This document shows, one piece after another, positions 70 to 57,157 of a stretch of DNA of 64,000 bases. This DNA is from Pocillopora damicornis. Lineage: Eukaryota. The stretch's first letter is position 1. Every line of letters begins with the position of its first letter. The notes beneath the pieces are model-generated. The model was not told the origin of the DNA and did no database searches. It saw only the letters and a program-made list of their open reading frames with translations. The DNA lies in NCBI RefSeq assembly GCF_003704095.1, contig NW_020845859.1, positions 1 through 64,000 on the forward strand, read 5' to 3'. The position numbers and the translations under genes were made by a program.

Positions 70-838
70 TTAACATTTCTTACTGAACTTGCGGATTTGT
101 TTGAACGTTTTTTTACTCCAAGGCTCGAACCAATCACACAGCATGATATCAAACGGCCCAAAGTTTTTTCCACCGGTGAGGAGGTACTCGCCGTTAACGT
201 TAAGATGAACACCACAGAGTCCTCCATTGGCTGGAGTTTCTAACCGAGTTATTTCGTTTTCGTGCAATGATCCTTTGAAGGTTTTCAAAACTTTAACTGT
301 GTAGCTTGCAGGGCCAACTGACCAAGGGTCATCACTTTCAGAAATCTCTGGTCGGAAACCTCTCAAAACCTTGGCTCTGATAGCTGTTTTAGGGAAATTA
401 ATAGTAAATACAAGGCTTGACAAAGTCAACGAAGACTTCGAAAACAACTTGAAGTTAAGGTAGCGATGAAAATTTGAGAACAATAAAAATATAAGCGGTT
501 AGGCTACTAAATAAGTTTCATCATGATTGCGTCCAAAAAAAACCTTTTTTTAATGGGTATGATAAGGATTTTATGGTTTATGGACCATGCTCCTCCTCGT
601 TGAAAAGTAAATTAGAGTATTGCCAAGCCGACCAAATCAATGAGGTAGATTTGAACTAAACATTTTGAAAAATTATCTCACCGAAGTCTGCATCGCAAAA
701 CCGTTGCATGTTCCAGTATCCAAAAACATTTCCTTTCCAGCCTGCGGTTGGTGGTATCGTAGGAACTGCGCATGAGCACCCCTCACTTAAGGCTACAGCG
801 CACAACAACAGCGTCATATAAAAGATTACGGAAGCCAT
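70..838 (-). CDS. TIMP: Single-domain TIMP-like metalloproteinase inhibitor (TIMP-A), ~156 aa
   Basis: Exons 838-682 and 383-70 (GT-AG, phase 1). Signal peptide MASVIFYMTLLLCAVALSEG, then CSC..., FCDADF|AIRAKV, VLKTFKG, LETPANGGLCGV, YLLTG, MLCDWFEPW, ending KKC-stop. Six NTR cysteines. Confidence 0.9.
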
Positions 839-1682
839 GATAACTGCCTCGTATTATGGAAAAAAAAAAACAACAACAATTTCTTCCTTTTCCCGTAAAT
901 AATGATTATAACGACAGTGGTAAGAGTAACAACATTACTAATTGCTGTTTGACTGAGCTTGTTGTCAAATAACGACTTGTCAATATTCTACCGACGTTTT
1001 ATCTCAAAAAAATCATTTTACTCCCGCGAAGAAACTAATTATTAGTTTTTGTTTTTTTTTCTTTTTTCCAAGCAAGAAAAGGGATCTCGTCTTTTAGATA
1101 TCCGCTTCGTTTAAGATGTTTTGTTTCGTTTAGGACATGAAATGGACGAAACAGTTCCGGCAAAACCAAATGTTTCTTCAGTCACCAAGGCGTTCAAATG
1201 AATAACCCATGAGTTGTGACAATCATTGTGACAACAGCGCTATCTTTGAAGGAAAGCCTGTTTTCTCAAATATGGCAGCCATGACAACGGTCGTTTGGAT
1301 CTGTGGAAGTCCAAATTAGTTCTACATAATGTGTTTATTCGAGAGTACAATCTATGTGAATATTCCAGCATCTGAATTTTCGGAGGAAAAATCAAGGATC
1401 ACCTTGCTCTTAACTAGAACAAGAAAGATGGTTAATTTTAATTTTAAGATATTTCTTTCACTTGTAACGAGTGTCCGATTTGTGCTGGAATCACAATGTT
1501 GCTCTTTTAAGGTGTGTAGTACTTGATACAATAAGCACAGGAATGTTGGAGCAGTAGTTTTTGTCCGATCCCCTCCAATTTCACTGTTTTTTTAGAATAC
1601 AGTTAAAGTTAAGCTTTGTACAAAATTCTGACTAATGGAAAGATAATGATTCGAGGTTGTATTGTACAAAGAAATACTCGAT

Positions 1683-1856
1683 GAGTTGAATGCTTACGAC
1701 AACGAAAGTAATCAAAATTAGACCTGAAAAAAATTCAGGCCTGTACGGGATTTGAATCCATAACCTCTGCGATACCGGTACAGTGCTCTACCAACCCCCA
1801 GTTGCCTTGTTATCTCAGTAGTGTTCACGACTGCGAAGATCGCTTTCATATTCATT
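1683..1856 (-). mobile_element. tRNA-derived SINE-like repeat fragment
   Basis: Minus strand reads GTTGGTAGAGCACTGTACCGGTATCGCAGAGGTTATGGATTCAAATCCCGTACAGGCCTGAATTTTTT (A/B-box-like head). A related copy lies at ~40050-40435. Confidence 0.6.
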
Positions 1857-1861
1857 GTAAA

Positions 1862-2048
1862 CCAGAGCAAAAGAGAATAGGTATGCAGGTTATCTAATTT
1901 TCCTTTTTAGATCAAATTAGAATGAATCAAACTCAAAGCTAAGTTTGTTTTTAAGGTGAACCTACCTGATGTGTTCTGATCGATTTGGCGGCCTGACTCA
2001 ACTGATGGCGAGGGCGTATGTCAGATGCGGTAATAAAACCAGGTTACA
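1862..2048. repeat. Upstream segment of TIMP-A, duplicated in inverted orientation at ~8140-8315 upstream of TIMP-C
   Basis: aaaagagaataggtatgcaggttatctaatttt...gtaataaaaccagg matches the reverse complement of 8140-8315. Confidence 0.75.
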
Positions 2049-2269
2049 GTAGACCTGATGAAATTTTGTGGAATATGCGGCTCCCTATTGGCTTTCAATT
2101 ATACGTTTACTTTTTCAATTACCGTATTTTATAGAAAATAATATCTTTTTAAGTAATTATTGTTTTTTTTTTCTAGCACGAGACTCACTCATATTTTCCG
2201 GTTGCCACTTCCCATTCCTTCCACTGAAGACACCCCGGATCATCTTCCTTAGAAATTGTCACTTTGAAA

Positions 2270-2775
2270 TCTATGGCCCTTTTTCCGTGACCTCTCTCTG
2301 TTTCTCTTATTAGTGTAACCTCATTTTTTTCCTAAGGTGCATTCTACTTTTAATTGTCTTTGCATGGGTTTATCTTCACTGTTTGATTAAATTTAATCAG
2401 TTCCAAGCAATTAAGACAATACGGACCTCAAGCAAATTAAAACTGCGAAAGAAATGAGGACGCGGCCAAGCAAAAGAGCTAATGAATAGAACAGCAATTA
2501 GCGCGTGCGTTTTAAGACTTTGTACATTTTTTAACCGTTCCCGGCAAAATCAGCAAAAATTACATAGTCTGAGAACGAAAACCTCGACGGCAAGCTACTT
2601 AAAGTTTTAAAGAACTCAACGAACTCACATGCGTTATGCTGAAGTTGAGAGGGATGCCGCAAGAGACGATAGATACATTCAGCCATTCGCAAAATGTTAA
2701 CTTAAGATATAAATTAATTTTTTTTAATGGACATTTTCCTCAGCACCACTGTTCTGCCTGCCTAAGGTCCTTCCT
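2270..2775. repeat. Segment duplicated at ~5320-5760 (upstream of TIMP-A and TIMP-B), including a MITE-like element
   Basis: Shared runs: tttctcttat..aacctcattt, gcatgggttt.tcttcac..gattaaatttaatcagtt, aaacctcga.ggcaa, cagccattcgcaaaa. Confidence 0.7.
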
Positions 2776-3833
2776 TGCTTTTTTTCGCAAAAACTTTATC
2801 ACAGGCAAGTCTGCAAGTCTAAAATGTAAAACCAAATTTTAATTTAATAATTACTAACTTGAATTTGAAAGGGCGGTTTTGAAATATTACCGCTAGCTAT
2901 GTTGACTTGCAGATAAATTGCCCAATAAAAAGCGTAAAAATCGTCAGAAAAAGTTTCTTTAAAACACAAAACTTAAAACATAAATCATTGGAAACATCAT
3001 ACACACGAGAAAAGCTAATTTTTCATTAAGTTAAAACTGTATCTCCGATGAGAAAAAAAAACTGCTTCTTGGGGATTTACAAGCAACCAAATAATTGCAA
3101 GTAAGTTCCTAAAACGTTTCCGAGACGTTACCAAGCATCTTATGTCCAAAGTTCTCCTCTCATGTTAATTGAGTCTCCCAGTTCAATCAGCAACAATGAC
3201 TGAGGGGGGTGGGAGGGGGAGTGAATAGTAAAAAGAAAACCCTTCGTCAAAAGTGAAACCACCACCTTGATAAACCCGGTTATTGTGACGACCACGTTAT
3301 TATTTGAAGATATCAATGGTTTTTATGTTTCTCGCTCATTTAAACTCACAGGCTTATTCTTGTTTGCTGGAAATAGCTTTTGCCATAACTTGGCCACAAT
3401 TGTGGCCGTTTATTTGCTAACAACTTGACTGAATTACATTTTATGAAATAATTCAAATAGTACGCGCGCTCTGATTGGCCATAAAACCATTTTACATGAG
3501 CGTATGTAAACACGGTTTTCGTTCCTCTTTCGTTAGTTATTTTATAAAAGAAATGTAAAATGGTTTCCGTATTTACATAGCCTGATGTAAACACTTGGGA
3601 GGTTGGGAGAACACTCGATAAGCTGAAAACCACTCCGCTTCGCGACGTGGTTTCCTACGCTTATCTTGTGTTATGTACGTTATGTGGTGCCGAAAGAGAC
3701 GATAAATTTAGAGTAGGTGACCTTAAAACATTTCCACCAGTTGGTTTCACAGGCAGATAGATTACCCAATGAAAAGCGTCAAACTCTTTTACATTCAGGA
3801 TGACGTCATTTTTCGCATAAGATAATCTCTCTG

Positions 3834-3906
3834 CCCCCTTACCCTTACACTTACCCCCTCTCCCTTAACCTCACCCCCTCCCCCCTACCCTCACCCCCTC
3901 CCCCAT
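3834..3906. repeat. C-rich low-complexity tandem repeat (cctcaccccctcccc-like)
   Basis: Direct inspection. Confidence 0.7.
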
Positions 3907-4082
3907 TCCAACCCAAGAAACGATGACGAGCCTTTACGAGTTATGCACGCTTTATTCTCACCATCTGATAAAATAAATAGTTAAAAAAAACCAGGTCAAG
4001 AGCTATTGAACTTGCTTAAATTGAATATCTTCCACTATTCGCCTGCAACCGATCGAGCGAACTTAACTTAAAATAACAATAA

Positions 4083-5010
4083 TCAACATTTCTTCTGGGC
4101 TTCGCGGATTTTTTTCCTCGTTTCATCTTTCCAAAGCTCATGCCAGTCACACTGCCAGATTTCCAGCTGACCTTCGCCTTTTTTACCCGTCAGGAGATAA
4201 GTTTCTTTGACGTTAAGCTTCACCTTACAGAAATTTTCAATTCCATTGGTTGGGGTTTTGAGTTCAACAATTTCCTTTTCATCAAACGTTCCTTTAAAGG
4301 TTCTCAAAACTTTAATTATGTAGACCACTGGGCCAACCGACAGAGGGTCGTCATCTTTGGTTGGGACCTCTTCAAAATCTTGGCTCTGATAGCTGTTGAA
4401 AAGAAGTTAAAAGTACCGCAATAAAAATGTTGCACAGAAAGTGACTTTTCAAAATCGCAGCCACGTGGTGCGTCGTGGTGATGCGCGAGGAGCGAAGACT
4501 TTGAACGCACAAAACAACTCGGGAAAGTAGTGTTCTACAAACAGTTGACCATTTGTGATTGTCGGTAGCATGGATTGTTTATGTGGCTCGAATTAAAATG
4601 CAAACAATGGGAGAGTAAAGGGAGTTTTTATGCCGCAAGGAAGTGGACAGACCACTAAGAAAGTTGTAAAATGGTGCGTACGCGAATTGCCAGGTTACTC
4701 TTTAGAATTTCCAAAAGCTTTTTTAATGGCTGCGACAAAATTCTTTTTTTATTTTTTTGGAGCATGCTCCTCCTCTGCGAAATGGAGATCAGATTAATGC
4801 CAAACTGACCGAGTGAATGATTTTGATTGAAACTAAATGATTTCAAAGTAGAATCTCACTGTAGTCTGCGGCGCATAAACGAAACTTGTTCCAGTACTCA
4901 TAAACGTCTCTCTCCTAGTCTTCCGGTAGTGGTGGGAGTAGACACGGACACTCCTCACTTAAGGCAACAGTGAACAACAACAGCGTTATATAACAGAGTA
5001 TGGAAGCCAT
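4083..5010 (-). pseudogene. TIMP-like pseudogene (TIMP-B)
   Basis: Exon 1 (5010-4860) reads MASILCYITLLLFTVALSEE-CPCLLPPLPED*ERDVYEYWNKFRLCAADY, with TAG at 4917-4915 where paralogs have TGG. Exon 2 (4392-4083) has a frameshifting ~10-nt deletion near 4355. The downstream frame gives DDPLSVGPVVYIIKVLRTFKG...FCKV..YLLTG..QCDW..KKC. Confidence 0.88.
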
Positions 5011-9200: not shown

Positions 9201-9289
9201 AAGTGATGAAACGCGTTGACTATTCTGCATTGTCTTTGTCGTTAATTTTGAGAATATTTGCAAGCGTTCAACTCACCATGTATTTATTT

Positions 9290-9873: not shown

Positions 9874-11039
9874 ATGACTTCCATACTCTGTTACATGACG
9901 CTGTTGTTGTGCGCTGTGGCCTTAAGTGAAGGGTGCTCTTGCGCTGAGCCGGTACCACCATCAGACTGGAAAGGAAATGCTTATGAGTACTGGAACAAAC
10001 AACGATTATGCGCTGCAGACTACGGTGAGATTCCATTTTGAAATTGTTTAGTGTTAAATCAACCTCATTGACTTGGTCGACTTGGCAGGTATTAGTCTAC
10101 ATTTCTCAGAGAAAGAGCATGCTCCAAAAACCTTTTTTTTTTTAACGCAGCCATTAAAAAGCCTATTAAAAATATGACGTCGAGCGTATTTGAAGACTCC
10201 AAAGAGTAACCTGGCATTTGCGGACGCCACCATTTTGAAACCTACTTAGTAACCTGGCCGCTCACTTAAGACTTAATACTCTTCAAACCATTATTTTTTT
10301 GATATCTTTTAACGATGTATTTGAACAACCTAGACCTGCTTAAACAGACAGTCTCTATTCCTACGACCATCTTTAATTTGCTGTGACCAGAGCATCAACT
10401 GTTGAGATTTTGCGTGTATAGCCAGCTGGGCTCTGAGCTGTTTTCACAATGGTTGATAGCATAATCAGCTAAATATTGTATCTCCTTTCCATAAAATTTT
10501 CAAAGGAAAAGGTTTCATTTTCTTTAAAGATGCACAAAATCCTATAGAGCTAACGCAAATTTGATTTCAATCGATGCTTGCCTTGTTCACAAATTGTCAT
10601 CGCCAACTTTATTCCGGCAAGGTCTCAAATTAATGCTTCGTTATTTTTGTTACACCCTTCCTGAGTTGCAGGAATTTACTCGTAGACCCATTCCTGTGCC
10701 TCATTTTACTACGTTACTTTTATTTTTCTTACAACAGCTATCAAAGGCAAGGTTTTGGAAAGATCGGATGACCCTTTGTCGGTTGGCTCAGTGATCTACA
10801 AAATCAAAGTTACGCAATCCTTTATAGGACCGTTTGACGAAAAAGAAATTGTTGAGCTCAAAACCAAGGCCGATGAAGCGCAGTGTGGTGTACACCTTAA
10901 CCTCGAAGGAACACAAAACATTTACCTCCTGACCGGTGGAAACAGCAATGGTCAATTGGAAATCGAGCTGTGCGGCTGGTATGAGCCATGGAAAGATGAT
11001 ACCAGGGAGAAAATTCGCAAAGCCTTGAAGAAATGCTAA
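9874..11039 (+). CDS. TIMP: Single-domain TIMP-like inhibitor (TIMP-C), ~150 aa
   Basis: Exons 9874-10024 and 10738-11039. MTSILCYMTLLLCAVALSEG-CSCAEPVPPSDWKGNAYEYWNKQRLCAADY|AIKGKV...QCGVHL..YLLTG..LCGWYEPW..KKC-stop. Frame intact. Confidence 0.9.
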
Positions 11040-14835: not shown

Positions 14836-17351
14836 TCAACATTTTTCCTGTTCTTTCTTGTAATAATTTTCCAGTGTTTTCTGTTTGTTCTTGCTTACAT
14901 TTTGAAATTCCACATTCCAGCCACATCGGGTAATGTGAAGGTCTGCATCTTCGCTTTTTTCTATTTTACCCGTTAAGAGGTAAACATTACCCAATTCAAG
15001 GTCTATTCCACAACCATCTGTCCTTGTCCAAGCTGTACCACTCCGCACAGGCCCTTGAATGGTCGCCATCGTAGGCGTCACTTTATAGAACTGGGCACCT
15101 TCTTTGAAAATATTTTTTATGTCGAGTGTATAGATTTTCCGGCTTCCCAAATCTGTGACTTGAGTAACCTTAGCTCTGATGGCTGTTAAGTGAAGACAAA
15201 AGCTCCGTGTTAAAAATGCTGATTTGTCTCAATAACAATTTCCTATACATTCAACGATATCAATGCACGGCAAAATGACAGCTGAATTATTATGATAGCC
15301 TTCGTTTGGTCTCCCAAAACATTTTGCAGAATCATCCTTTAAATGATATACCGATAAATTCACCATCTGTATTACTTTTTTTCTCTAGGAGCGGTTTTTT
15401 TTGTCTAGAGCGTAGCAGCTAGACACCTTGCAAAAGCGGTAGGAGATTCAATAGGTGCCTCATGTAAGACAACAAATGACGTATTGGTGTTATGGTTTCT
15501 GTGAAGTTACCGTAAGTGACAGGTTAAATGAAGTGAGCGATCATCGCGTAACATAATATGACAAGAATGCGCATCCAGTGATTGGGTGGAACCACTTGGC
15601 TATTTTGTCGTAAGATCTGTCGGAAATCCCTATTTGGTGAGCGTAACTCCTTGTGACAGAGAGATATTCGGGACCGATTGAATTCGAAAGAGCAAACATT
15701 TCGAGAAAACTTATCGTCGTAGAAAAAACATGCGTTTTTTAAATTGTCGTATCTTAAGAAGGGCCTGAAGAAGCGAGGCGTGGTTATTTCGGAGAGTACA
15801 CCAGTATTTTATAAGTTATTGATACTGAATACATTTCCGATCATACGCACCACACATTTCACCTTTATAATTTACCTTTTGTACTTTGTGCATTTTCACT
15901 TTTCCTTTAATCGACACACAGTCAGAGCTAGACGACCAGTGTATGTGTTAACAGATTTCACGACTTTACTTCTTGCACGAGTATCTACCTTTCAGCTGCT
16001 AAAAACATTGCGTAATTTGTGTTTTCCATACGTTTTAATTTACGATTCTTTGTGTTCGTTTTGGTCTCCATTTTATTTTGTAAGTTTAAAATAGTAACGC
16101 CTCAAAATGATTGGAATTTCGTCGCGAATTGTACCCAAATTGTACCTATCTATGTTTGACAGAATTAAATATTTTACGGAAATCTTCGGGTTAAATTTTT
16201 CCTTTTTTCTGTTCCCATGTTTCCAAAAACTTATTTCAAGTTTAGTTGTATCTGCTATTGCGTTAATATTTGCACAATTTTTTCCTTCGGCAGTCATGAT
16301 CTGTTAAGTTGAGAAACTCTCTCGAGGATCGACTTGCTTAGAAAACTCGGATCTCATAGTTTCATCGTCACATAGTTTATCCAAACAATTCCCTGAAAAA
16401 TACCGAACTTTGGTACACCAATACACCCATTGATATATATTGAACATACCTACCAAATAGACTGCGAGTGCAGTACGACTGTTAGCATGTTGTTTTGTGA
16501 TAATACATTCATTTTAATTTGGATTAGACACACGTACGCAGTGCGGACCTTTTTTAACCTTTGCGCGATCCTGCACTTTTTTCTTGCCTTCGACTTGAAA
16601 TGTCATGATTACCTCTTAACATGATCAGTCCTCGATTTGACGGTTCACGAAGTCAAGGCCGGCTCGTAAATTGCCACTGCCAGAAGAAACTGTGCGTAAC
16701 GACAAACTCATATTATTAAACTTCCTTTCTACGGAGTCTTTTATCGCAACTAGAAAAAGTCAGACTTTAAAAGAAAACTTTATTTGCTCATTTCTATTTC
16801 ATTTTAAGCGGAAAGTTTACCACAAGCCTCGATATAGTTCCGCTACTTTTTTTTTCTGGCCAGCGGTTCAAAAATATCGAACCTAGTCTCGTTATGTCGT
16901 AATGCCCGAAGTTTCAGTGGTTTGCTGCATGTTCAGGAGACAAGGGCGTGGCTGGAAGGAACTGATTGTTACTTCTCCTCTCTCGTTGGTATACATTTCA
17001 TTGTAAATTAGATACGAGAATTTGGTTTAAGATCACGATGACAACTTGTACGTGATCAGTTTAAGTATTCTCGTTACCCGTTCCCCAGGGAACGAATGGA
17101 TGTCATAGGAAGAAGTTATATCTTAATTACTTGTTAGAGTTTAAGAGAAAAAGGACAGGTTACCCGGAATAAAAGCAGAAATTATTGACTAAGTGAATTG
17201 GAAATCAAAACTTTTTAAATTATTGAGGTAGCAACTCACCGAAGTCATCTCTGCATAAAATCGCCATGTGAGTTGTCTTAGCGCAACTGCACGACTCGCT
17301 AAGGGCCACAGTGCACAAAATCAATGTCGCATAAGAGAGAATGGAAACCAT
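14836..17351 (-). CDS. TIMP: Single-domain TIMP-like inhibitor (TIMP-D), ~152 aa
   Basis: Exons 17351-17240 (MVSILSYATLILCTVALSES-CSCAKTTHMAILCRDDF) and 15182-14836 (AIRAKV...IFKEG...DGCGIDL..YLLTG..TRCGW..EKC-stop). Intron of ~2 kb, phase 1. Confidence 0.88.
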
Positions 17352-20300: not shown

Positions 20301-21527
20301 GATTATTTATAATTATTTGAACGCTTTGTGCTTTGAAGAGAAAGAGCTCTAATTTTAACAAGCTAACTTGAAAATTTGTTGGAATGCTCCATGGAATGAT
20401 GAATAATGAATGCGAAACAAGAGCAATTATTCAGTTTCAAAGCGAGTATTGAAAGAAATAAAAAACATCATAGAAGGTAATTTAAGAAAATTTCCTTCGC
20501 TGGCCCGAGAAACTTAGACACCGATGACTAAAACTAACGATTGAATCGAACTTTTTGGAACGGAAATATTAACCAAATTAAAGTTTGTTAGTAAATTTAA
20601 ATAGAATTATGATTCCAAATATGCAAAGGTAGTAATTTTTTTATTTAACGGGATTGTTAGGCAGAAAAACATTCAGCAAAATTTATGGTAAGCTACGGTT
20701 ACATCCTGATCAATTTTACCTTTTTTCTCTCATTTTCGCTTTTCATTTTGCTTCGTAAACACTGCTGCAAATCGAATTGTAAATCAAAACAATCAGTCCC
20801 TCCAACTGACTGGCTTCGCTTCGTTTCGTATATTTTTAAAGTTTACATGATTGACGTGGATAAATATGCTGAAATTCTAGCATTCTAAGAAATTTTTCAT
20901 AGAACTTTATATACAAAATGCCCAAAACTGAGAGAAAAAAAATCAATTGGTAATGAAACTAGTGGAAGCTTGAATAGTATTGTAAAAAAGAAATATAATT
21001 TACCAAAACAACTCATCGAAAATAACTTAATTAGCGTCTGCAAAGTAAATATTTCATATACCGCAAAACTCTTGGAGCAAATTGAATGAGAAGTTTTCTA
21101 ACCACTCGCAAACAGAGGTAGAAAATTGATTTGGTATTTTTTTTCTGTCTAGTGCGGTTTCCAATCGCAAAGACATGAGACTTTCTCGCAAACGTGTTTT
21201 CGTCCAACAACAAAATCTTAACAAGTGTTGGTCATAGCTAAGCCAATGTACTGATTATATTATTGAGATCCCGCTAAGAAATTCGAGAAACTATTCTTGG
21301 ACTTCCCTTGGCGACTCAAACCTACGTCAGTAAATGGAGGACTGATAGTTGTTGTGATCCCACCAAGATATTATGAACAGTTTTCAACAGCCGAGCCACA
21401 AAGATAAAATGATTTTCATTTCCTGTTAAATGCTGGAGCACGTAATCAATTCTGTTCTGTAAAACGGAGGCTATAAATCTGATAATTTTTGCCGTCATAA
21501 AGCCGAAGAAACCTGGCACTATGAAGC

Positions 21528-24500
21528 ATGGAAAGCTCTCGTGATATTACAGTTGCGTCGAGTAACAATGGCGCAGATGACATCATTGAGGAAACTTATC
21601 CATGCGCTGATGCCGATTCAGGGTCTATCAGAAACCGTATCGCCTGTAAGACAGGTCATATACTGAATAACCTTACGTCGAGCGTGTGGTATAGCTATGC
21701 ATTGCTCTATTTTCAACATGTTGCTGGTTTGTCCGCCGTCAGCGTTGGCATCATTTTCTTCATTTCTCAAACACTAATGGCAGGAAGTTCGCTTTTGATT
21801 ACTTTGGGCCGCGAGAAACGCTTATGGAAGTATTTTTCCCCGTATGGAAAACGAAAAGCATGGCATATTATTGGATCAGCCGGTGTGCTGTTCTCGTGGC
21901 CTTTCATCTTTATACCGTGCTTGTTTTGTGAAAATAATAGCTCGAATGTTACGTTAGGGGCTTACTATCTGCTATCTGTGGCTTTGTTTTCGATCTCTTG
22001 GCCACTTGCTGAAGACAGTTACTATTCACTTATGACTGAAATACGAGAGGAAAACGGCAAAGATACCGAAGCGTCAAGGTATGTTGGTGACAAATTCTCG
22101 GGTTTATAAACATAATTTTTAATAATAAGTATCTCAAACAGCACGCACTGTTGAAATTATACAAACTACTTTTTATCGGCCCTAATTTGAGAGACAAATT
22201 CAAATCTTATCCATTTTAAAGCCTCGTGAATCAAGTACAGTATTGTAATTCCTTTGGTGGCATGCCAAAACATTCTTGTCTAGCTTTCCTAATATTTTTT
22301 TCTCGGAAAAATCTAAGAGCTTTGTTTTGAAAAATGTGATTACTGATCATTCCGCATCCCATAATTGACACAGTTTCAATAAACAGCTGGAGCTCATGGA
22401 TGTCGCCCGGTGACATCTCAAAGACTTATTCTTGATGAACTCTTTTACAAAGTCGAACAAGCTTCGACAGTTTTCAATGCGAAGAGATACAATAGATCTT
22501 TTTTGTGCATGTTCCATTCAAGCCGCTTGTCTATGCTAAAAACGAGAAGTTGTCATCGGAAAACGGAGGTTTTTGAAAACGATGATGTGACTGCTTGGTG
22601 AATCTTGGGGCGGGAAAATAGGGCCTCTATTATGCACTCGCTCTGTGATGAATCTAGGTGTTTCTGCCACCAGTGATCGTTGTAGTGTGGACAAAGAACA
22701 TAACATACACTTTCTAGTGCGGACAGAATACTTTGATTACATTTTGAGAGAGAGCCCGCCTTTTTAAACTTTATCTGACGTAGCGTTGAAGGGACTTTAC
22801 CGTTTCAAATTCCTGTAAACCCACTTTATTTAGACTGTCATGGATTTAAATTGCATTTTCATAGATCCATTGTCCGCGTTTGCAAGGTGTGTCTCTATAT
22901 CTTACTGTGGATTCTGCTTCAAGAGAGTACGGAAAGTAAAATGAATTCAAATGTTAGCGAGCAATTTACGGTAAGTATTACCCTTAAAACTAAAGTGGAA
23001 TTTAGATTAAAGCTTTATCAGTGAAACGTTATGAGGTTATGAGATTTACAGGATGATAAGAATTTTATTCACTAAATGGCTTCAAGCAAACATTTTTTGA
23101 TATGAATCATGATCATTTTATTCTTTAGCGTTTTGCGATCATTCTACTTCCGGTTGGCTTTCTATTCGTCTTCGCTTTCCATTTAACGGTGCTAGAGCCC
23201 AGACCTCAGACAGATGAAGGAAAGCTTGATGAAGGTACTTGCACTTTACCTACTGAAACTCTCGCTGGGGGTCTGGAGCACAGAATGTACCGGTTTACAG
23301 GCCCTCAACGCGCACACCTGGACATACCAATTATATTGTTATTCCCTCTGAGCAAGAGGCTAACCTTTGCCACTCCCCCTCCCCCTAAAATTTCATAGTT
23401 TACCAAATATAGCCTTTAAATATTCGTGGTTTACGAAAGACTCTATGAAAATCTATTCAGTGCCGAACAGTCAATACATTTTGGAAAGGGGGCTAGTAAT
23501 TGTACGGAAGATTCATGTAAACGTGATTACACCAATAATATTTTTGACGCTGAGTTTTATACTGAAAGAATTTTTGCGAACTTTCGTTCTTAGTGAGAGT
23601 TGCACAAAATTTTTTTGTGCGCAAAGAGCATTGGGTAATAATAACTGTTTAATTGCTCCATTGTAACTCCATATACTCATTAGTTTCCTTATTTGTTTGT
23701 TTTTTTGATTCGTTTTTGTTTTTTAATGTAGAGAAAAACTGTGGGAGATCAACTGCAGACGTAACTTCTCGAACAACGATAGTGAACAACGAACCGACAG
23801 GAATGAGAGAGGGGCCAAAATTAACTTGGTTCGAATGGCTGAAAGAACCTTCGTTATATAAGGTAAGTAAAAATCTGAGATTTCACTTTACAGTTCACCA
23901 GAAGCGTTATCGTTTATACTACTTTCCCTCATGAAATATCTAGTCAATTTAAAGAATGAATTCTCTATCATCTGGATCCATTAATTCAGTGGTAGAAATT
24001 AATCTGCTTAAGTGTCTCAGACACAAAAATTTTTGATCTCAAAAGACATGATTAAAGGGGTTGAAATACCAGTTTCCAAATTCTATATTCATTTTAGCTT
24101 TAATATACTCAACTTTGCTTAAAATGCTACACCTATTTTATCCTGATTATTTGTTTTATTTCAACTTTTATCCGTATTCACACGAGTACACAAGCTTTGT
24201 AATTTTATCTTTATCGCGTTTAAATAAAGGTTTTATTCACTTCTTTCACTAACTAAAAATATACGGAAGGACGTGGTTAACATTTCGTTAGCCTTCTTGA
24301 TCAAACACGTCAATACACGGTGTTTTTTCTTTCATTAGATTTCCTTTATTCCGTAAACTATTCGATTATCGTTTTCCTTCTTTCCTTCATTATAGGTTGG
24401 TTGTATCGTCGTTTTTTCCAACATCACATTTCGGATCGTTCAGTCATACCTTCCGCTGTATGTCGTCGAAACGCTAAACTTACGAAAAGTAAGCAAAAAG

Positions 24501-24907: not shown

Positions 24908-24941
<34 letters not shown>

Positions 24942-24952
24942 GTGGTCTTTGA

Positions 24953-31119: not shown

Positions 31120-32782
31120 TCATGGGAAGCCGTATCCTCGGCGAGCACACTGCTGGAAAAGTCCTTGTCCTCTTCCTCGCCAGCCACATTTTTCGACGCC
31201 ATTTTGATCACGATAACTGTAGCACCGATGATATTTTGCTCTGCACATCCAGTGGGGGTCAAATCCATCACAGCCAAGTAGAAGGCCACCACAGTTTGCG
31301 AAGCAAAATCCGATCTTACACTTACATCCTTGGCTATACTGCATTTGGACACCGGCTCTCTGTTCAGGAGTCACCTCGGTCCACTTCTGATGGAAGTTGC
31401 AGAAGCTGGTGTACAGATTTCCGTCTAAAATCTTTCCGAAAAGGAGGTATTCGGTATAAGGCTGGAGCTGCACTCTACACGACGAGATTCGAGAAGGTGT
31501 GTATAGCTTGGTCAATGACTTGTTTTGCACGTTTGCATGGCCTTTAAAGATGGAGGTAATTCTTAACCAGTAGACTTGATAATTTCCGCCTCTATTTGGC
31601 ATGGCAGCTCTTATTGATGGACCCACGACCTTAGCGCGCAAAACTAACGAAGCAAAAAACAACACTTGTGAGAGAGGGTAAGAAAGTTAAGTTTACACTC
31701 CAAAAAAAAGTTGCAACTTCAACCGAAGCTCTACCTGGTTTCTGTGCTTGAAGCTGTTGGGAATGTTAAAGCTCACCCTGGTTGGAACACCAATATTTTA
31801 AGATATGCGAAGGTGATAGAAACGCTCTCATGTTAGGGCAAAATGTCATGAAGGAGTCTAATAGCAATTTCTTGTTACCGTAACTCAAGCGTAAAGTTCC
31901 GAGGGTAGCACTTAGAAGAAGTGTGAGTGGAGGTATTCTGCCGAAGGCATGCAAACTGAGACCCTGTTTAAGGCAAGATCTTGTCATTGCGCTGCCCCGC
32001 CCAAGAAGAGTAACTTTCATGGAATGTAGTATATCGACCTCATGAAGTTATTTTTGGCATATACGGACGGAAGTTTTAGAATTGGATCTAAAGACACTTG
32101 TAATTATAGCCGCATATGTAAACTTCTCGTAACAGAGGTCATCCGTGGATGTCAAACAGTCACAGATAAATGTTCCAATATCATCGAACAAATCTTTCGA
32201 CATTCGCAGGAAAACAGAGAAAGGAAAATACCCATTCATGCAACATAGACGGTATCAAATGTACAATGTAGTACATTTCATTTTCATTTTTCAGCTCTTC
32301 TTGTGAGTAAACAAATACTCTTTTTTGGTTTTTGGCTCAATCTAAAAACAGAATGTTCTGGTGAATCCCTGTGCATGAATTTTGTTCAAAATGTTGGAAT
32401 GAAACTTGTCAGATTTAGCTTGACTTGACTGAGCTTGACATAGATTTAAAGCATCAAACAATCGCTGTTGTCATGTTTATAAAACATTTACAGCTAAAAC
32501 GTTTTACAATAATTTCCGAAAAGACTATATGTATGTTACCACGAGCATAAATTAGGATTATTTGAATCGTGTCCTTCTATCAACTAACAGAGCAGAGAAT
32601 TCGCCCGTGGAAATGAACCGGCTGAATACTGGGCCAAATAAGCACAAATTACTTGAAAAGATGAACTTACCGAATCCACCAGCGTTACAGAATTGTTTTT
32701 GAGGATGTTCCGGCATACAGAAACAGGCGAAGGAAGAGGTCACCGAACAGACGGTTATCAACAGGAACAAGAAAACGGCCAT
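31120..32782 (-). CDS. TIMP: Two-domain TIMP (TIMP-E), ~211 aa
   Basis: Exons 32782-32671 (MAVFLFLLITVCSVTSSFA-CFCMPEHPQKQFCNAGGF) and 31643-31120 (VLRAKVV..IFKG..LYTP..SSCRV..EYLLFG..FCNFHQKW..YSQGCKCKI..CGW). Cys-rich C-terminal domain present. Confidence 0.93.
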
Positions 32783-36606: not shown

Positions 36607-37533
36607 TCAGCATCTCTGTTCCATTTGAAATGAAGAGAGCTGTCTTTTGAAGCAACCACAGTGTACAAGCTTGCTTATTTCCCGCTTAATGTCCTGTTTG
36701 AGTAATCCATAAACGAGGGGGTTGAACGCAGAGTTTGCAATCAGCAGTAATTGTTGCACCTGTTCCACGTTCTTTGAAGGAGTTGGACAAAACGGCAAAA
36801 ACTGACACATGCTCTTAACAGAAGTTAGGGAGTAACAGAGAATGTAAAATGTCACCACAAAAACGATGAAAGCGATGGAGTTTCGAGCCCTGTTTCCTTG
36901 GCGCAAGGGCGGCGTGTTTTCAGTTCCTGTTGTAGTGGAGTCATTGTAGCGTAGCTGTTTCACAACTGCAGACCGCTCGCGGACATGTTTTCTGGCGATA
37001 AAAAGCAACTGTATCGTGGTTAGCAGCAAGCTTACCCAGGGAATGAGCTCGAAAACGATCGCCGCTACAAAGGTAAAGTACCTTATACCGTCTTTCGTTT
37101 GTATAAGAGTTAAAGGTACAAAACCGGCCACGAACGGTAGAATCCAGGCCATGCTGATGAACGCCAAAACACAGTTTTTTGACATGAAACTGGCATAAAC
37201 AAAGGGTTTGACTATCGCCATGTAGCGGTCCAATGCCAACACGGATAGATTGGTCACAGATGCGTACAAGAATACCCACTGAAAGATGGCAAGCAAAATG
37301 TGATGGCATCCGTTCTCAACGTTAGGTAAACAGAAGTATAAACCAGGATATAAACTCAAGCTTACTCCAAGATCTGCCACGGACAAAGACAAAAGAAACC
37401 AATTGGTAATGCACTGAAGGCGTGTTTTCGAAGCAATTAAAATGATGATGAAGATATTGCCTGTGAAAGCGAGGGCAGTCAGAAGCCAGCCCAGGACAGT
37501 AAACCATTGAGGTTTTCCTGAGTTGTCCAACAT
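36607..37533 (-). CDS. Class A (rhodopsin-like) orphan GPCR, 308 aa
   Basis: Seven hydrophobic segments with GN (TM1), LSVADL (TM2), LDRY (TM3), W..P (TM4) and NSAFNPLVY (TM7). A splice acceptor lies just upstream of the ATG, so upstream exon(s) are likely. Confidence 0.92.
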   Translation of the reverse strand: MLDNSGKPQWFTVLGWLLTALAFTGNIFIIILIASKTRLQCITNWFLLSLSVADLGVSLSLYPGLYFCLPNVENGCHHILLAIFQWVFLYASVTNLSVLALDRYMAIVKPFVYASFMSKNCVLAFISMAWILPFVAGFVPLTLIQTKDGIRYFTFVAAIVFELIPWVSLLLTTIQLLFIARKHVRERSAVVKQLRYNDSTTTGTENTPPLRQGNRARNSIAFIVFVVTFYILCYSLTSVKSMCQFLPFCPTPSKNVEQVQQLLLIANSAFNPLVYGLLKQDIKREISKLVHCGCFKRQLSSFQMEQRC

Positions 37534-39594
37534 CCTGAACCCAAACAGAAAGGCAAAATTTGGTTAGTTCTTTGAGACAGGTGGCCCAGGCTTGTGTAGG
37601 AAATTAATTAAACCAGTCTTAATTATATATCACTTAAAACGAAACCCATTTTTAAAGGATGGCTGAAACTCGTCAAACAAAAACAAAGCTAAATTAGCAT
37701 GAAGCTCAATCGATCGATGATGGTCGCCAGAAATAAAAACCCTAGGGTCTCATCAGGAACCGCAAATTAGGCCCAAAAATTTTCATCAGACAACTATTGA
37801 AAAAAAAAAAGCTATGGATCGGAAAATCGCCGAGGCTGCGATTCAGTTAAACAGGGGACCGGGATAACGAGACCTTTAGGCTGGACAAGCGAAAAACGAA
37901 AACAGTAAACCGTTCTTTCGTGAACAAAACCGCAAAGAAGTTTCTTTAATTTGGAGCAAATACCAAGGACCGATCTTAAAACGGCCGTTTTTAGTCATTC
38001 AGATAGCGCAGCCAGAACTGCGAGGCAAACTGCTTGCCGTCTCATAACACTGATGCGAAAATCACACTTAAAAAGATGAAAAATAACGAGAATAGGGCTA
38101 TACTCGCAAAAAAGTTCTTACTTCAGGTTTGTCAAGTTGGCCTGCTCGGTAACATTCAGGTGACGAGACATTCTATTCATCCGGTGAGGTTTAATAGTGT
38201 ATCGATGTTGCTCAGACAGTGGAGGCTGTATCTTGAAATAGAATCGTCAAATATTAAGTGGTGCTATTTATTGTACTGTCTTTGAAATTATGGAGGCCAA
38301 ACAAAGTGGGTGACATTTGCGTCTCACATTTTAATTAAAACGCAATGCAATATTATTTCGGGTTGGTGAAAATTTGACTATTTGAACGTTGACTTACTTT
38401 GACTGATAATTTCCTTCTGTTGTTGGTCATTCTATTAAAAATTTTTCATATTTGTTTGTGTTTTAAAGGTTAGTTAATGTAGTAACCCGTATTGTGTTCA
38501 ATTTAGTAATAATAACTCGACATCAAAGTGGAAAAATATGAATATCAGATCCTGATCAAAGTTACCAACCAAGAATTAGTAATGTAACTAAAAATTATAG
38601 TTCCTATCTATCTTATCTAGCGTGCATTCTCCTCAATAGCTACAAAAACATCTGCTATACACTTGTATATCATTATACAGAAGGTATTAAGTAGTAAAGC
38701 TTCGTGTAGTTTGACCTCTCCCTCCCAGCTAATATAAAAAGAAGATACAACTATCTTGCACTTGAAAAACACTGGTAATTAAAAATTTTTAATTTTTCAA
38801 TCATCTTGCTGTCATGTGAAATATGCCTCTCGCGGGAAATTAATATTGCCTTCTATATTCTGTCACTTCTCATTTTGTGCCAACTCACGTTCCATCATTA
38901 ACAACATTGATATGACACTTGACTCATGAGGAAAAAACCTTTTTCAATTTTCCTTTTCTGAGTTACTAATGTTACCGCTTCTAACCACGTCGCAGTTACA
39001 GTAATGAGACTGGCACCAGGCTCTATTTTTCTGAGTTTTACTTACACCGTAACATAATGATTGAGTTTCTATTGCCAGAAAAAAAAAACATAGATACTAA
39101 GAGCCCAAGCTGATTAATTTAAAAAAACAAACAATCCTATTTGTACCCACAGAATACTTTGTTCTCTCTATCCTTAATGTACGGTTAAATTTAAATTCGA
39201 CCGGGTGTCTGATTATCATATCGTAAGATCCACATTTTGAGGTAAAAAACTAACATTTAAGATGAGGAAATGATGTCATCTATCAGCCTGTTCCAGGCGC
39301 TTGGTCGGTGAAAGGGAGCGATTTTATAAACGGTACAATGGTAACGGAGGAGTGATAGCGACAGAGGTTTGGGTCGAGACCCGACCCAAACCTCCACCGT
39401 TTTTTCACTTCTCCACCACTATCGAGTCGTGGATAACGACTTTGGATGCGTCCTTGAGCAAGAGTTAACTACGCCAAAATAGAAGCCTAGAAACTACTGC
39501 TGGAATTATATGCGACTTTGCCAGAAATGAATTCTTATCTGACATTTCTGAAGAAGCGTAACTAAGGAGATGTTACTTAAACAGATAATGCGGA

Positions 39595-47510: not shown

Positions 47511-48458
47511 ATGTCATTTGCAATCTCTATCGGTTTTATATTTTGTTTCAGCTTCATAACTGCCAGCCAGAGCTGTATGTGCCGGTTTAGAGGACTGCGA
47601 AAAGACTTTTGTGCCGCTGCCATCGGTAAGCAATTGCAGTGCAAAAACATGGCTACTATATTAGTTCAATTTTGGTTGGGTGAAGTTCTTGGTCACAATT
47701 CAAAGAAAGGCGTAAGAGATTTTTCAATATATTTTATGTTTTGCTTTTTTTCCTCTTAGCAAACACATTAGTAATGTATTTATATTTAAAATTTTATTGT
47801 TATCGACATATGTAAAAAATATAGAATTATAGATTCCATTGTAAATAGATTTTAGCCCTTGAAATAAAGATATAAGCTTGTTTGTTATTATCATCTATAT
47901 CACTATTATTAATATTTTTTTTTGCATTTGTTCCACAATATGCACTAGCCACCCTCGTGTTTAAGATTAAGAGCTCATGTTCTTTTCAAAATTCAGGAAT
48001 ATGATTTCTTTCGATTTTTTTAAACAGTCATGAAAGCCAAGGTTACGTCCAACGCTACAAATGCCCTCCATGTCCAGTCTGATAATGACACATTCAGCCT
48101 TTATTCTTCTTCTCAAGTCTACAATCTGAAAATTGTTGAAGTTTTCAAGGGTAAAGAACAACTTAATCAGCTGGCAGGATTCACACCGTCTATCAGAGGC
48201 GAGAGCCCAGTGTATACAGTTGAGCTGCACACCCCTCCTCGGTTTATTTCATGCAGCTTCCTGCTCCGCGAAGGTCAGGAGTATCTCCTGTCAGGCAGAC
48301 TAGACAACAACAAGTTAAGTTCCGAATTTTGCGATATCCGTCTGGAGTGGGGTGATATCACGCCAAGGCAGGAATATGGTGTTAGGGTAAAATACGCTGA
48401 GGACTGTTATGATGGAGGAATTAGAATCCATAACCAGTTTCAAGACCAATGGCCGTAA
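47511..48458 (+). CDS. TIMP: N-domain-only TIMP-like inhibitor with short tail (TIMP-F), ~181 aa
   Basis: Exons 47511-47625 (MSFAISIGFIFCFSFITASQS-CMCRFRGLRKDFCAAAI) and 48028-48458 (VMKAKV..VEVFKG..LHTP..ISCS..EYLLSG..FCDIRLEW..YAEDCY). Confidence 0.9.
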
Positions 48459-52001: not shown

Positions 52002-53314
52002 ATGGAAGTTCATGCATGTCTCTTGGTGGTCTCATACTTATTGGCGTCCTGTCATGCCGGCCTTATTCAAAAGCCTGTGTTGGAGCATCCTCAGCAGGTT
52101 TTTTGTAAAGCAGACTTTGGTGAGTTTTGCGCTTCATTGAAAATTTTAAGAGATCATGGTTCTGTTAAAGTAGCAATGACCATGTGTCAGTTTAGGGTTT
52201 ATAGGGATCCCAGGCTCCTGTTTTATGTTGCAATATTCAATCGACAGCCGGCCCGGTTGAAAAGGGTCCTATAACGGATTTGAGTTCATCATTCAACTTA
52301 TAAGGATTCAAGAAGGAAAGCTTAAGTTTTGGAGCTCAACACCAGGGATTCCTGCCACAATTTTATTTGTCTTTCAGAATTGTCTCACCCAATTAAGCGT
52401 TAAATGGTCAATGAAAAATTAGTTTCAAATTGTCGGGAGAACTGAAAAAGGAATCAAAGAAGCTTATGCGTGGCATACCATAACAAGAAAGTGGTAGATC
52501 AAGGCAGATGAAATTTGAATAAGTTTAAAAGTTACGAACCTAAATTTGCACCAAACTTCTGTAATAATGTCGCTTAGCTTTGAAAATAAAGAAACAGGCG
52601 TGCGACCTACGCTGATTTGCTTATGAGCCCGCGATTTTGGGGATAAATATCCTTTGAACTGGCGAAGTTCAATGCTGTAATTTGTTATTTAACGAAAGGG
52701 TCTACATATTGCAAAGTTTTCACGACACTATCTTTTCCATCACAGTTATACGTGCCGATGTTGTGTCGGGACCTGAAACAGATCCGGAAGGTCACTATGA
52801 AGTTTTCAGCATAAACATCACGGAAGTCTTCAGAGGATTGTCACGCGGACCTGCCCTGAACGCTACCAAACTTTACACTCCCGGTAATATGTCGACAGAG
52901 AGAGTGACTGGCCCTTATGGGATCAGAGCAGGCGCTGAGTACCTTTTGCACGGCGAAATTTTGAAAGGTGTAGGAATGTATACGAGATTCTCCTCATTGC
53001 GGAAGGAGTGGAATAATGTGATCCCACAAGAGAGAGAAAAATTTCAGTATTATGAAGCCGGATGTCGTCAATGTCAGTTGAAACTGTGTGGTGAAACCGA
53101 CCTAGAATGTCAGAAAAAGTTGCCCGGATGTGAGATGAAGGCAAATCAGTTAGCCCCCTGGCAGTTCTTGAAATCGTTTTGCTGGCATAGGTATGAGCAC
53201 TGTGAAGTGGATGCAACTGGTGAGCAGTGTTACTGGAGGAAAACAGACGAACCGAAAGAATGCGAGGAGAGCAATCCTTCTTCCATAAATAGCTTTCAAG
53301 GCGTCGAGGCATGA
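52002..53314 (+). CDS. Two-domain TIMP-like protein lacking the CxC inhibitory motif (TIMP-G), ~228 aa
   Basis: Exons 52002-52119 (MEVHACLLVVSYLLASCHAGLIQKPVLEHPQQVFCKADF) and 52746-53314 (VIRADVV..EVFRG..KLYTP..EYLLHG..YYEAGCRQCQ..QCYW). Frame intact. Confidence 0.9.
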
Positions 53315-53819: not shown

Positions 53820-54013
53820 GAAGGGGGTGGGTGGGGAAATCCGTGTGTATTCATGACACTCTCATTCTGAAAGGGGTGGGGTGGGGAAATCCGTGTGTAC
53901 TCGTGACACTCATTCTGAAAGGGGTGGGGTGGAGAAATCCGTGTGTACTCATGACACTCATTCTGAAAGGGGAGGGGTGGGGAAATCCGTGTGTACTCGT
54001 GACACTCTCATTG
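53820..54013. repeat. Minisatellite, ~48-bp unit x4
   Basis: Unit gaaaggggtggggtggggaaatccgtgtgtactcgtgacactcattct. Confidence 0.92.
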
Positions 54014-55962
54014 TGACATGATAATGCTTACGATAATAATCTTGATTATGATAATGAAAATGATGATATATAACAATACATGACATCATATTGGATGAGT
54101 TTTGACTGATAGCATGAGAAAATAACGGTGATAGATTTCGTTTACATTCCTCGGATTCGCACTTTTTCGCAATCTGAATTTCTAGTTTTGTATCTTATTG
54201 ACTTAGAAAAAATATTCTCACGGGAACCTCAATCCCTCCTCCTTTGCAATGAGGTCTATCGCCGTCTTTTGAAACGGATTTGTTCTCAATGGAGCCAAAC
54301 ACTGATATATTGGCCATTATTTAATCTCGAAGAGTGTGAAATTAGGGTCAAGTAAGGATATTTATTTAAAGGTCCGGGTTTTATTCTGGGTTAGAATAAA
54401 GTGACCCATCCAGCCGGTAATCAGTTTCTATAACATGAAGCCACTAAGAATATGAAGGGGATGCCATTTTATTGCAAGGTTACACCCCAGCATTTCCGAA
54501 ACAGTTCCTTGGCTCCCATTAACACACACGGGTGGAGAGAGGCGCTTTGCGTAAAAAGTCTCGCCCATGGATTCGGCCAGGTCTCGAACCCAGACTTCAT
54601 GACCCGGTCTCTGTATAGATTGGCGGTCAGCTGGTTACTAACACAAGTGCCATATGCATATTAATTTCATAAAGAACTAGAATTGGGATTTTTTTTTTCT
54701 TGTTTACGCCTAAAGGATTTCGCAAACTTGTGGCAGCCAAAATGATTCGTCTGACAGCCTCAAGTGCTATGAAATAGTAATTCATCCTCAGACGAGAATC
54801 TCTATTACTGAGGCAACAGTTAGTGTTATCGAGTTACAAAAGCTACGTCAATTATTTGTTTTGCTGACCGCCAATAGCTCTTTTCTACTTGAAGAGAAGT
54901 GCGTTATTCCGTCTGTTTGCAATTCAATACGGGCCAGACAACCCTCAAGTGGCTTTTGTGGTTGTTGTAGGCGGGAAACGGGTTTCAGAACAAAAATAAT
55001 TGGGGCTTGCTTGTAACTGAATTGTGGTCAAATATGGAATAAGCGGAAGTGAATAAAACATAAAGCTTTCAGACAAATCTTTAATTTAAAACCTATATAA
55101 CAGCCTATTTATAAGCTTTAAAAAAATCAACAAGTTGGCTCCGATCCGAACGTGCCTTCGCTCACCTTTAATTTATTCTGCTCGTAAAAGAATCCTAGAG
55201 TCCAAAGACGTAGACTGCTTTTACGTAGGAAAGTAAGCGGGTATATGGCACGTTTTGTTGACAAAACACCAAGAGAAACCCCTTAACACACTCAGAGCTG
55301 AGTATAACTAAATGAAAACATGACAAGACTGTTTCAATGTTTCTCTATAAAAAACCTCTCTACAAATGAAATTGGGTCTTTTTCGTTTTTTGTTTCTTTA
55401 AGTGGTTGGGAAAGGACGTGACTTCCTACTGAAATTCTAACTCATTTTACCATTTGGCACGTGCGTGACTTCGTAAACCCTAAGAAACTTCTGCCAAACG
55501 AAAGCACTGGGGAGAACGATCTTTCAGTTTCCTTTGGCTTACACGTTTAAAAACATCAAACTTACAAAAATATCTGGCATTTCTGTGAACTTGACCTTCG
55601 TGACTTCGTAACTCCATTCGCCGTAGTAGCTAAGTCTTTAGCATATAACAGCAGATGAATTCATCTTGGTTTTTTCTTTCTTTCTTTCGAGAAAACAATC
55701 TGTGTTCATCAAGATATCTGTCTTGAATAAATTGCTTGAATAACTTCCGTAAAATTTTTACCAGTCTAAAGAGGCACTGAAATCCGTATGAGCGCGTCGC
55801 TTAAGGTGTAATTTGTCTCCATCCAAGTGGAGGGCTTGTCCCAACCTAGAATGTTCGGCGGAAGTCGGGTAACAGTCAACATTTGTATTTCGAGTTATGA
55901 TATTTTCGTGTCCACTTTAAATTCCTCACGGAATCCGCCCACCCAACTCCCAGTTACACAGG

Positions 55963-55971
55963 ATATAAATA
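55963..55971 (+). promoter_or_regulatory. Candidate TATA box of TIMP-H
   Basis: ATATAAATA ~90 bp upstream of ATG 56055. Confidence 0.45.
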
Positions 55972-56054
55972 TAGACGAACCGCCGCTTTTCTCAATCAGC
56001 CAAAGGTGATTCAAGAACTTCAACAGGCGAAAGTCAAAACAGAAATTGGAAGCC

Positions 56055-57157
56055 ATGGAAGTTCACCCGCGTCTCATAGTGATGTTATGTTTGATTGCAT
56101 CTTGTTATGGAGGTATTATTCAGTCGGAACATCCCCAACTAGCTTTTTGTAAAGCGGATTTCGGTGAGTTTATAGAATGTTTGAAGATCCTTAGAAATCA
56201 TAATGCTTTTAACAATTTGTAACTTAGAGTTGTAGATCAAAAAAAACGTTTCGCAACTGAGAGAAAGCACAACTTGAAACTGTCCTGGTTAGATTGAATT
56301 TGGACATTTATGTGCATGTTCCAGGATGGTAAAAGAAAAAACATTTGACTTCGGATTGTGCGTGTAAGTTTTCACGTTTTTCAATGGGTTTAGAGAAGAA
56401 AAAAAAAAGGAGAGAGAGAGAGAGACAAAGGAAAGTGTCAACATGGTCAAGTGTCGGAAATGCCATTGTTTATTGACGTTACCGGTATTTTTTCATTATC
56501 TAATTATTATTATTGATATCATCTTATTTTTATTATCATTATTATTATTTTACAGTGATACGTGCCCACATCGATTCGGGACCTGAAACAGAGGGTAACT
56601 ATTTTGTTTTCAAGATAACCATTAAAGAAATTTTCAAAGGGTTGTCGCTCGGACGTCAAGGTAAGGCCTTCGGTTTGCTGGAAACAGAATTCAAGACGAA
56701 ACTTTACAGCCCCGACGGCAGCACGTCTGATAAAGTAACCGGACCATTTGGGATCAGAACGGGAGTCGAGTACCTCTTGTTTGGGGATATTCTGCACGGC
56801 GGGAGGCTGTTTACGAAATTCTCCTTTCTGCGAGAGGACTGGGACACAGTGACTCCACGAAAAAAAGCAAACCTTCGGGGGTACTATGAGGCCGGATGCC
56901 GTCAATGTCAGATCAGGCCATGTGGTGAATCTGACTTGGAATGTCGCAAAAAGTTACCTGGCTGTGAGAAGAGAGCGACCCAGACTCCGTACTTGTATCA
57001 ATGGACGCTTCTATCGAGGTGTTGGAAGCAATTTGAGCACTGCGAGGTTGATGCAACTGGTCTGCAATGTTACTGGAACGAAACAAGGGAATCGAAACGA
57101 TGCAAGGAAAGAAACTCATTGCCCCTTCCTTCTAGAGGCAATTCATATGATGCATAA
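56055..57157 (+). CDS. Two-domain TIMP-like protein lacking the CxC inhibitory motif (TIMP-H), ~236 aa; tandem paralog of TIMP-G
   Basis: Exons 56055-56163 (MEVHPRLIVMLCLIASCYGGIIQSEHPQLAFCKADF) and 56556-57157 (VIRAHI..EIFKG..KLYSP..EYLLFG..YYEAGCRQCQ..QCYW). Confidence 0.9.

Follow-up and report, generated by a model that had tools for sequence, protein, structure and literature searches.

Among the closest described systems are the vertebrate tissue inhibitors of metalloproteinases (TIMP-1 to -4), and the standard TIMP mechanism is that of proteins with an intact Cys1-X-Cys3 motif (PMC9409782, PMC3003256). We analyzed 64,000 nucleotides of Pocillopora damicornis (NCBI RefSeq assembly GCF_003704095.1, contig NW_020845859.1, positions 1 to 64,000 of the forward strand; hereafter the window), in which eight TIMP genes, A to H, lie between positions 70 and 57157. 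As in the vertebrate proteins, the model of A has an NTR/OB fold, and A, C, D, E and F share Cys1-X-Cys3 and, by prediction, the three N-domain disulfide pairs. Unlike them, the coral genes stand in tandem, have two coding exons and in five of eight cases encode a single domain. E, G and H further differ from vertebrate TIMPs in an eight-cysteine C-domain, A to D and F in the absence of the HPQ motif, and G and H in the absence of the four ridge cysteines.

Large TIMP families have been described from other invertebrates. Acropora millepora has seven TIMPs (a-g), both single- and two-domain, four of them without Cys-X-Cys (CxC) (Nicosia 2016, PMC4860685). That study, unlike ours, was transcript-based and set the CxC-less proteins aside, two of which lack a signal peptide and are possibly partial; the word "tandem" was not found in the text searched (PMC4860685). 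Echinoderm TIMPs have undergone a lineage-specific expansion to up to 45 genes, with a variable residue 2 and repeated loss of CxC or HPQ (PMC8467561). An earlier note, made from the window's sequence, had set the cluster against the four TIMPs of mammals and about one of insects, and in view of the Acropora and echinoderm numbers this contrast overstates the surprise. The cluster is mostly an expected invertebrate TIMP expansion, older than that note assumed, and its less ordinary part is G and H, in which Cys1, Cys3 and both partner cysteines are lost together. We consider it probable that this is an old stony-coral cluster of at least four lineages (A-D, E, F and G/H) with recent turnover only in A/B/C, that A and C to F block the coral's own metzincins, and that G and H are most likely binders. 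TIMPs set the balance of matrix breakdown in coral growth, wound repair and skeleton formation, and a map of old and turning-over copies points to where function should be sought.

Gene models and transcripts of the cluster

The eight genes were delineated by a six-frame scan and manual exon work. All have two coding exons with GT..AG splice sites and a phase-1 intron at a common position, directly 3' of the Cys13-equivalent. The exon-2 segments of all eight exceed the curated cut-off of Pfam TIMP (PF00965; 23.1 bits), with E-values from 2e-23 to 4e-10, and A, C, D, E and F score 41-83.5 bits. A ninth TIMP was not found in the window with four profiles and tblastn in all six frames. A, B and C are single-domain genes with 13-15 additional residues separating Cys3 and Cys13, D and F likewise encode one domain but have nine residues there, the usual spacing, E has two domains and 14 cysteines (six in the N-domain and eight in the C-domain), and G and H have two domains, 10 cysteines and no CxC. 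A, B, D and E lie on the minus strand and C, F, G and H on the plus strand. The run of TIMP genes is broken up by an MFS transporter exon and a rhodopsin-family receptor gene (Table 1), which the earlier description passed over. Residue 2 reads S, P, S, S, F and M from A to F. The earlier description of at least eight TIMP/NTR genes in four architectures and mixed orientation, with this residue-2 series, thus agrees with both the Pfam matches and the gene models.

Our models of A, C, D, E and G are identical to RefSeq XP_027047413, XP_027047417, XP_027047410, XP_027047421 and XP_027047412, respectively, and the model of H is one residue off a spliced Logan protein. GenBank models pdam_00020461, 62, 63, 65 and 68 are all assigned to one 115,160-base contig. 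Thus, the genes of the cluster had already been annotated. The window paralogs are mutually 21-57% identical, and this divergence, together with the five separate RefSeq matches, rules out haplotype or assembly duplicates, as the earlier note had argued from divergence.

Contigs from three RNA runs and one DNA run were aligned on window positions 1-11200. Splicing of gene A is documented by a polyA-RNA contig (run X15) that joins 682-849 exactly to 25-383. Evidence for gene C is weak, a single RNA contig at depth 2.9 whose match stops at the exon 1 donor. Clear spliced B was not seen in the RNA contigs of the three runs, where missing coverage is no evidence against transcription; run X17 spans B exon 2 and an unspliced part of exon 1, and is possibly DNA. 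Full-length spliced Logan proteins exist for G (P0016, P0223) and for H, the latter with 1-3 residue differences. The spliced Logan proteins checked for E are Stylophora-like (17-18 differences), and the Pocillopora D and E gene models rest on RefSeq. For F, the exon-2 frames are intact in all 15 members listed of the 136 in its cluster. The concern that most copies might be untranscribed is therefore not borne out: a spliced transcript or protein exists in three cases (A, G and H), the evidence is weaker for C, D and E, and for F no spliced record was found among the 15 members listed.

Age of the cluster and turnover of the A/B/C branch

We calculated an N-domain tree of 43 rows. D groups with its Stylophora ortholog (support 100/99), E, G and H each pair with a Stylophora protein, F groups with an Oculina protein (100/100), G and H form a clade (100/100), and A, B and C cluster with just one Stylophora gene (100/99). 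E is 91% identical to its Stylophora ortholog. The Stylophora A/B/C-, D-, E-, G- and H-type proteins are all assigned to one 2,105,177-base contig, and in Oculina the H-type ACROYT_G019597 and the F-type ACROYT_G019600, with locus tags that differ by three, are assigned to the same 33.96-Mb sequence. The ortholog pairs and these labels indicate that birth-and-death is confined to a single branch, within a cluster that is old. The earlier label of a birth-and-death cluster therefore suits A/B/C, with their local duplicates and broken B, and fails for the cluster as a whole, since Stylophora has orthologs of D, E, G and H, and Oculina one of F. Gene A shares 44% identity with a two-domain TIMP from a different Stylophora contig versus 30% with E, and the sequences suggest that A to D may be truncated descendants of a lineage other than that of E, with weak tree support (76/86).

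Two ortholog models depart from their Pocillopora counterparts. The Oculina F-type protein P0085 has an N-terminal C-X-X-C with spacing as in sea-cucumber tensilins. Models of the Stylophora G ortholog (P0013, P0213) stop shortly after Cys124; its C-domain may have been lost, while Pocillopora G retains it.

Exon 1 of gene B is interrupted by a stop codon, and its exon 2 is frameshifted. Both defects recur in an independent DNA contig (run X3) that spans 3885-6928 with 0 differences to the window, which rules out assembly error; the defects are real. Run X17 contains 10 extra bases at the frameshift and four of five B-type exon-2 proteins are in frame, indicating that the frameshift varies among Pocillopora haplotypes or species. 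In the GenBank model P0274 (pdam_00020461), B exon 2 and gene A are fused, apparently through an annotation error that stems from the broken B. The non-coding flanks of A, B and C can be aligned at 69-80%. In a word-limited search, with 33 matches among 705 candidates, one A/B/C-type copy was found in Stylophora, with canonical spacing and no insert, versus at least three insert-bearing copies in Pocillopora; thus, the insert arose most simply in the Pocillopora line. Further A-like variants occur in other contigs (P0021, P0349 and P0352). Another relative of gene A, P0020, resembles P0021 over its first half and gene A over the rest, with a single switch point; on the evidence of one contig, it would be either a paralog recombination or an assembly chimera.

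The inhibitory ridge and competing readings

A, C, D and F each have six N-domain cysteines, at the positions for the pairs 1-70, 3-99 and 13-124, and A, C, D, E and F are predicted to retain all three N-domain disulfide pairs. In these five proteins Cys1-X-Cys3 directly follows the signal peptide, taking cleavage sites read by eye from the (-3,-1) rule. An AlphaFold model of A (predicted local distance difference test score, pLDDT, 87) has the NTR/OB fold and superimposes on N-TIMP-3 with a Z-score of 14.3 and a root-mean-square deviation (rmsd) of 2.5 over 112 residues. Residues 21-156 of the model align to 1-119 of 3cki_B and Cys21 matches TIMP residue 1, so that the inhibitory ridge of A looks intact in the model. 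The insert of A forms a lower-confidence loop running into a longer first helix (38-49); a second contact site in this Trp/Tyr-rich insert would be a guess.

The intact motif in A, C, D, E and F implies the standard TIMP mechanism. These proteins would be secreted and would block the coral's own metzincins (MMP, ADAM, ADAMTS), which appear the likeliest targets: the Cys1 amine and carbonyl would bind the catalytic zinc, residue 2 would enter the S1' pocket, and the residue-2 side chain and the A/B/C insert would tune the target enzyme. In another stony coral, a Timp1 that may or may not correspond to one of A-H is co-expressed with Mmp24/25 in calicoblasts (PMC12019164). Among 78 canonical TIMPs, residue 2 takes ten different letters, with Ser in 43 and Phe inflated by E alleles; a variable residue 2 is ordinary among invertebrate TIMPs (PMC8467561). 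Of the diversified secreted anti-protease repertoire proposed in the earlier note, the diversified TIMP set is supported, and secretion and inhibition are what the proteins' sequences would predict.

G and H are TIMP homologs, as judged by the TIMP profile (E 1.8e-18 and 9.1e-19), HPQ, Cys13-Cys124 and the C-domain, and are nearest to E-like TIMPs in the N-domain tree (88/72). They lack Cys1, Cys3 and the partners Cys70 and Cys99, and keep Cys13-Cys124. CxC is absent from all 27 HPQ-bearing G/H-type members, and the Cys70-Cys99 span is free of cysteine in 85 of 87 members, the other two having a cysteine at a different position. A conserved G-P-F-G-I motif takes the place of the Cys70 loop. 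Tensilins have C-X-X-C (PMC8467561; PMC4807446), whereas in coral G/H both cysteines of each ridge disulfide are gone and a Gly is kept in register. The hookworm proteins AceES-2 and Ac-TMP-1/2 are secreted single-domain NTR proteins, and AceES-2, whose motif is incomplete, does not inhibit MMPs (PMC3679795); it retains the N-terminal disulfide and is single-domain, whereas coral G/H retain Cys13-Cys124 and a full C-domain.

The G/H clade has named members in Stylophora, Orbicella, Oculina and Desmophyllum. A metagenome scan added 10 short loci of 1.1-4.2 kb, too short for synteny, three of which share the intron position of the cluster. Against nine of these coral loci (L010 was excluded as partial), the ratio of nonsynonymous to synonymous substitution rates (dN/dS) is 0.21-0.31 for H and 0.19-0.31 for G, rough values given that dS is near or above 1. 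G and H are under purifying selection. One metagenome locus (L009:97-639, compared with L008) carries a second H-type copy from another coral metagenome, with a damaged G-P-F-G-I and a dN/dS of 1.18 at a dS of 0.07, which looks like a decaying duplicate; two H-type proteins are also listed under each of two further contig sizes. An ESM Atlas search returned general TIMP clusters only. We found no paper on the cluster or the Gly-start subfamily in a search mostly outside subscription journals, and the alignment figure of PMC4860685 may already show an H-type protein.

A Gly stands exactly six residues before His7 in nine of 12 sampled N-termini, and the other three, of G-type, also have Gly as their first residue. 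In eight of the nine in-register N-termini, position 2 is taken by I, L, V or F. In a PDB alignment H residue 25 is aligned to TIMP-1 residue 6, which places H Gly20 at the Cys1 position. The AlphaFold model of H (pLDDT 57, residues 13-32 below 50) has TIMPs as its best matches at an rmsd of about 12 and is too poor to place the N-terminus. G and H offer a naturally occurring test of the rule that Cys1-X-Cys3 is required for inhibition by TIMPs.

Replacing Cys1 with Ser severely reduces MMP inhibition in human TIMPs (PMC3003256), and AceES-2, without the second cysteine, does not inhibit MMPs (PMC3679795). Because Cys1 loss usually cripples MMP inhibition and AceES-2 is inactive, we favor a binding role for G and H, although at this stage their sequences leave that role about evenly balanced. 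Having lost the two ridge-pinning disulfides and rebuilt both ridge halves as a Gly-start N-terminus and a G-P-F-G-I loop, they would bind matrix, pro-enzyme or receptor rather than tightly inhibit an MMP. It is possible, if on the unlikely side, that the H-types are still active-site inhibitors, in which zinc would be bound by the amine and carbonyl of Gly1, S1' would be occupied by the hydrophobic residue 2, and the G-P-F-G-I loop would keep the ridge in place with no disulfides; an ADAM or ADAMTS, rather than an MMP, may then be the enzyme inhibited. The in-register Gly, the hydrophobic residue 2 and the alignment of Gly20 with Cys1 fit such inhibition, as do (-3,-1) residues compatible with cleavage directly before Gly. 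Residue 1 contacts the zinc through its backbone amine and carbonyl, ADAM/ADAMTS inhibition can survive an altered terminus (PMC3003256), and TIMP-3 C1S retained one of its activities in a cell assay (PMC2064509). However, the Gly may merely suit signal peptidase, the Gly of G is out of register (His at 9-10), and the nine rows represent about three related lineages, which are not independent, with a cleavage site predicted by eye. Rather doubtful, too, is the broader proposal that stony corals evolved a metzincin-blocking TIMP subfamily without ridge disulfides, its Gly1-hydrophobic pair mimicking collagen P1-P1' and braced by the G-P-F-G-I loop. Such a subfamily would have persisted across pocilloporids, Orbicella, Oculina and the deep-sea Desmophyllum. 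Precedents that would fit are the cleavage of collagen by MMPs at Gly-Ile/Leu and the disulfide-free N-terminal Ser of serralysin inhibitors; our literature search gave no confirmation of either. A disulfide-free tip, if true, would be relevant to TIMP engineering and to the reading of many CxC-less invertebrate TIMPs, since these proteins, routinely dismissed as inactive, would include working inhibitors.

Several points weigh against an old cluster with a young A/B/C branch, canonical inhibitors and G/H binders. Spliced F was not found among the 15 members listed of 136, and F was not seen in Stylophora. Conserved clustering in Stylophora and Oculina would follow from record labels (equal contig sizes, near locus tags) rather than from scaffold sequence. 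An A-D clade appeared in 12% of bootstrap trees in the careful tree versus 96 in the quick tree, the single A/B/C-type copy in Stylophora comes from the word-limited search mentioned above, and the invariant in-register Gly of the H-types speaks against G and H as plain non-inhibitors. The cluster, or at least A/B/C, might instead serve in immunity, as a set of weapons in an arms race against metalloproteases of microbes or symbionts. The recent A/B/C duplication, the segregating broken copy, the additional A-like variants and a dN/dS of 0.53 for A versus C (pairwise Nei-Gojobori) would suit this idea, but dN/dS exceeds 1 in no window gene pair, relaxed selection after duplication accounts for 0.53 equally well, E has changed little from its Stylophora ortholog, and none of our results points to targets in microbes or symbionts. 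Among proteases of coral pathogens the best known, VcpA of Vibrio coralliilyticus, belongs to the thermolysin type, which is not known to be a TIMP target. We therefore regard an arms race as improbable. It is very improbable that the entire cluster arose in this species as a single recent birth-and-death series: tandem and inverted copies, one broken gene and one common intron position are what such a series would leave, but it is largely refuted by the grouping of D, E, G and H with Stylophora orthologs and of F with Oculina, and A is closer to a two-domain TIMP at another Stylophora locus than to E.

Coordinates and neighboring features

Table 1 Positions of the TIMP exons and of two unrelated genes in the window.
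Feature	Position	Strand	Remarks
TIMP A exon 1	682..838	-	Signal peptide, C-S-C, 15-residue insert; equals XP_027047413; polyA-RNA splice 682/383
TIMP A exon 2	70..383	-	Single NTR domain, ends at Cys124-equivalent; Pfam TIMP E 3.6e-15
TIMP B exon 1 (broken copy)	4860..5010	-	C-P-C; in-frame TAG 4917-4915
TIMP B exon 2	4083..4392	-	Frameshift near 4352 in this haplotype; Pfam E 3.9e-10
TIMP C exon 1	9874..10024	+	Signal peptide, C-S-C, 13-residue insert; equals XP_027047417
TIMP C exon 2	10738..11039	+	Single domain; Pfam E 4.7e-11
TIMP D exon 1	17240..17351	-	Signal peptide, C-S-C, canonical spacing, no HPQ; equals XP_027047410
TIMP D exon 2	14836..15182	-	Single domain; Pfam E 8.4e-11; Stylophora ortholog P0360
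TIMP E exon 1	32671..32782	-	Signal peptide, C-F-C, HPQ; equals XP_027047421
TIMP E exon 2	31120..31643	-	N-domain and 8-Cys C-domain; Pfam E 2.1e-23
TIMP F exon 1	47511..47625	+	Signal peptide, C-M-C, canonical spacing, no HPQ
TIMP F exon 2	48028..48458	+	Single domain, short tail; Pfam E 2.3e-10
TIMP-like G exon 1	52002..52119	+	Signal peptide, predicted Gly start, no CxC, HPQ at mature position 10
TIMP-like G exon 2	52746..53314	+	No Cys70, Cys99 equivalents; C-domain kept; Pfam E 4.3e-10
TIMP-like H exon 1	56055..56163	+	Signal peptide, Gly in register with Cys1, HPQ at 7-9
TIMP-like H exon 2	56556..57157	+	No Cys70, Cys99 equivalents; G-P-F-G-I loop; C-domain kept; Pfam E 4.7e-11
MFS_2 transporter exon, unrelated, between D and E	21525..22109	+	Pfam E 4.2e-06, slightly below cut-off
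Rhodopsin-family G protein-coupled receptor, intronless, unrelated, between E and F	36607..37563	-	Pfam 7tm_1 E 2.2e-24

A Lingula anatina protein, P0029 (XP_013398359; 1440 residues), contains six tandem NTR/TIMP-like domains, several of them after a basic-residue site and a short CxC lead-in, and is possibly a TIMP polyprotein. This six-repeat protein proved unrelated to the coral genes and was set aside.

The window also contains two separate MFS-type multi-exon genes, one at 21525-~29000 (+) between D and E and the other at ~58700-63000 (-) beyond H, the latter with a weak Pfam match only. A high-copy repeat of about 200 bases occurs at 8988-9489, 27466-27665, 30416-30627 and 50534-50749; at ~9-9.5 kb it forms an inverted pair that resembles a miniature inverted-repeat transposable element and has very high read depth. 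At 59050-59316 a similar short peptide is read on both strands, suggesting an inverted repeat.

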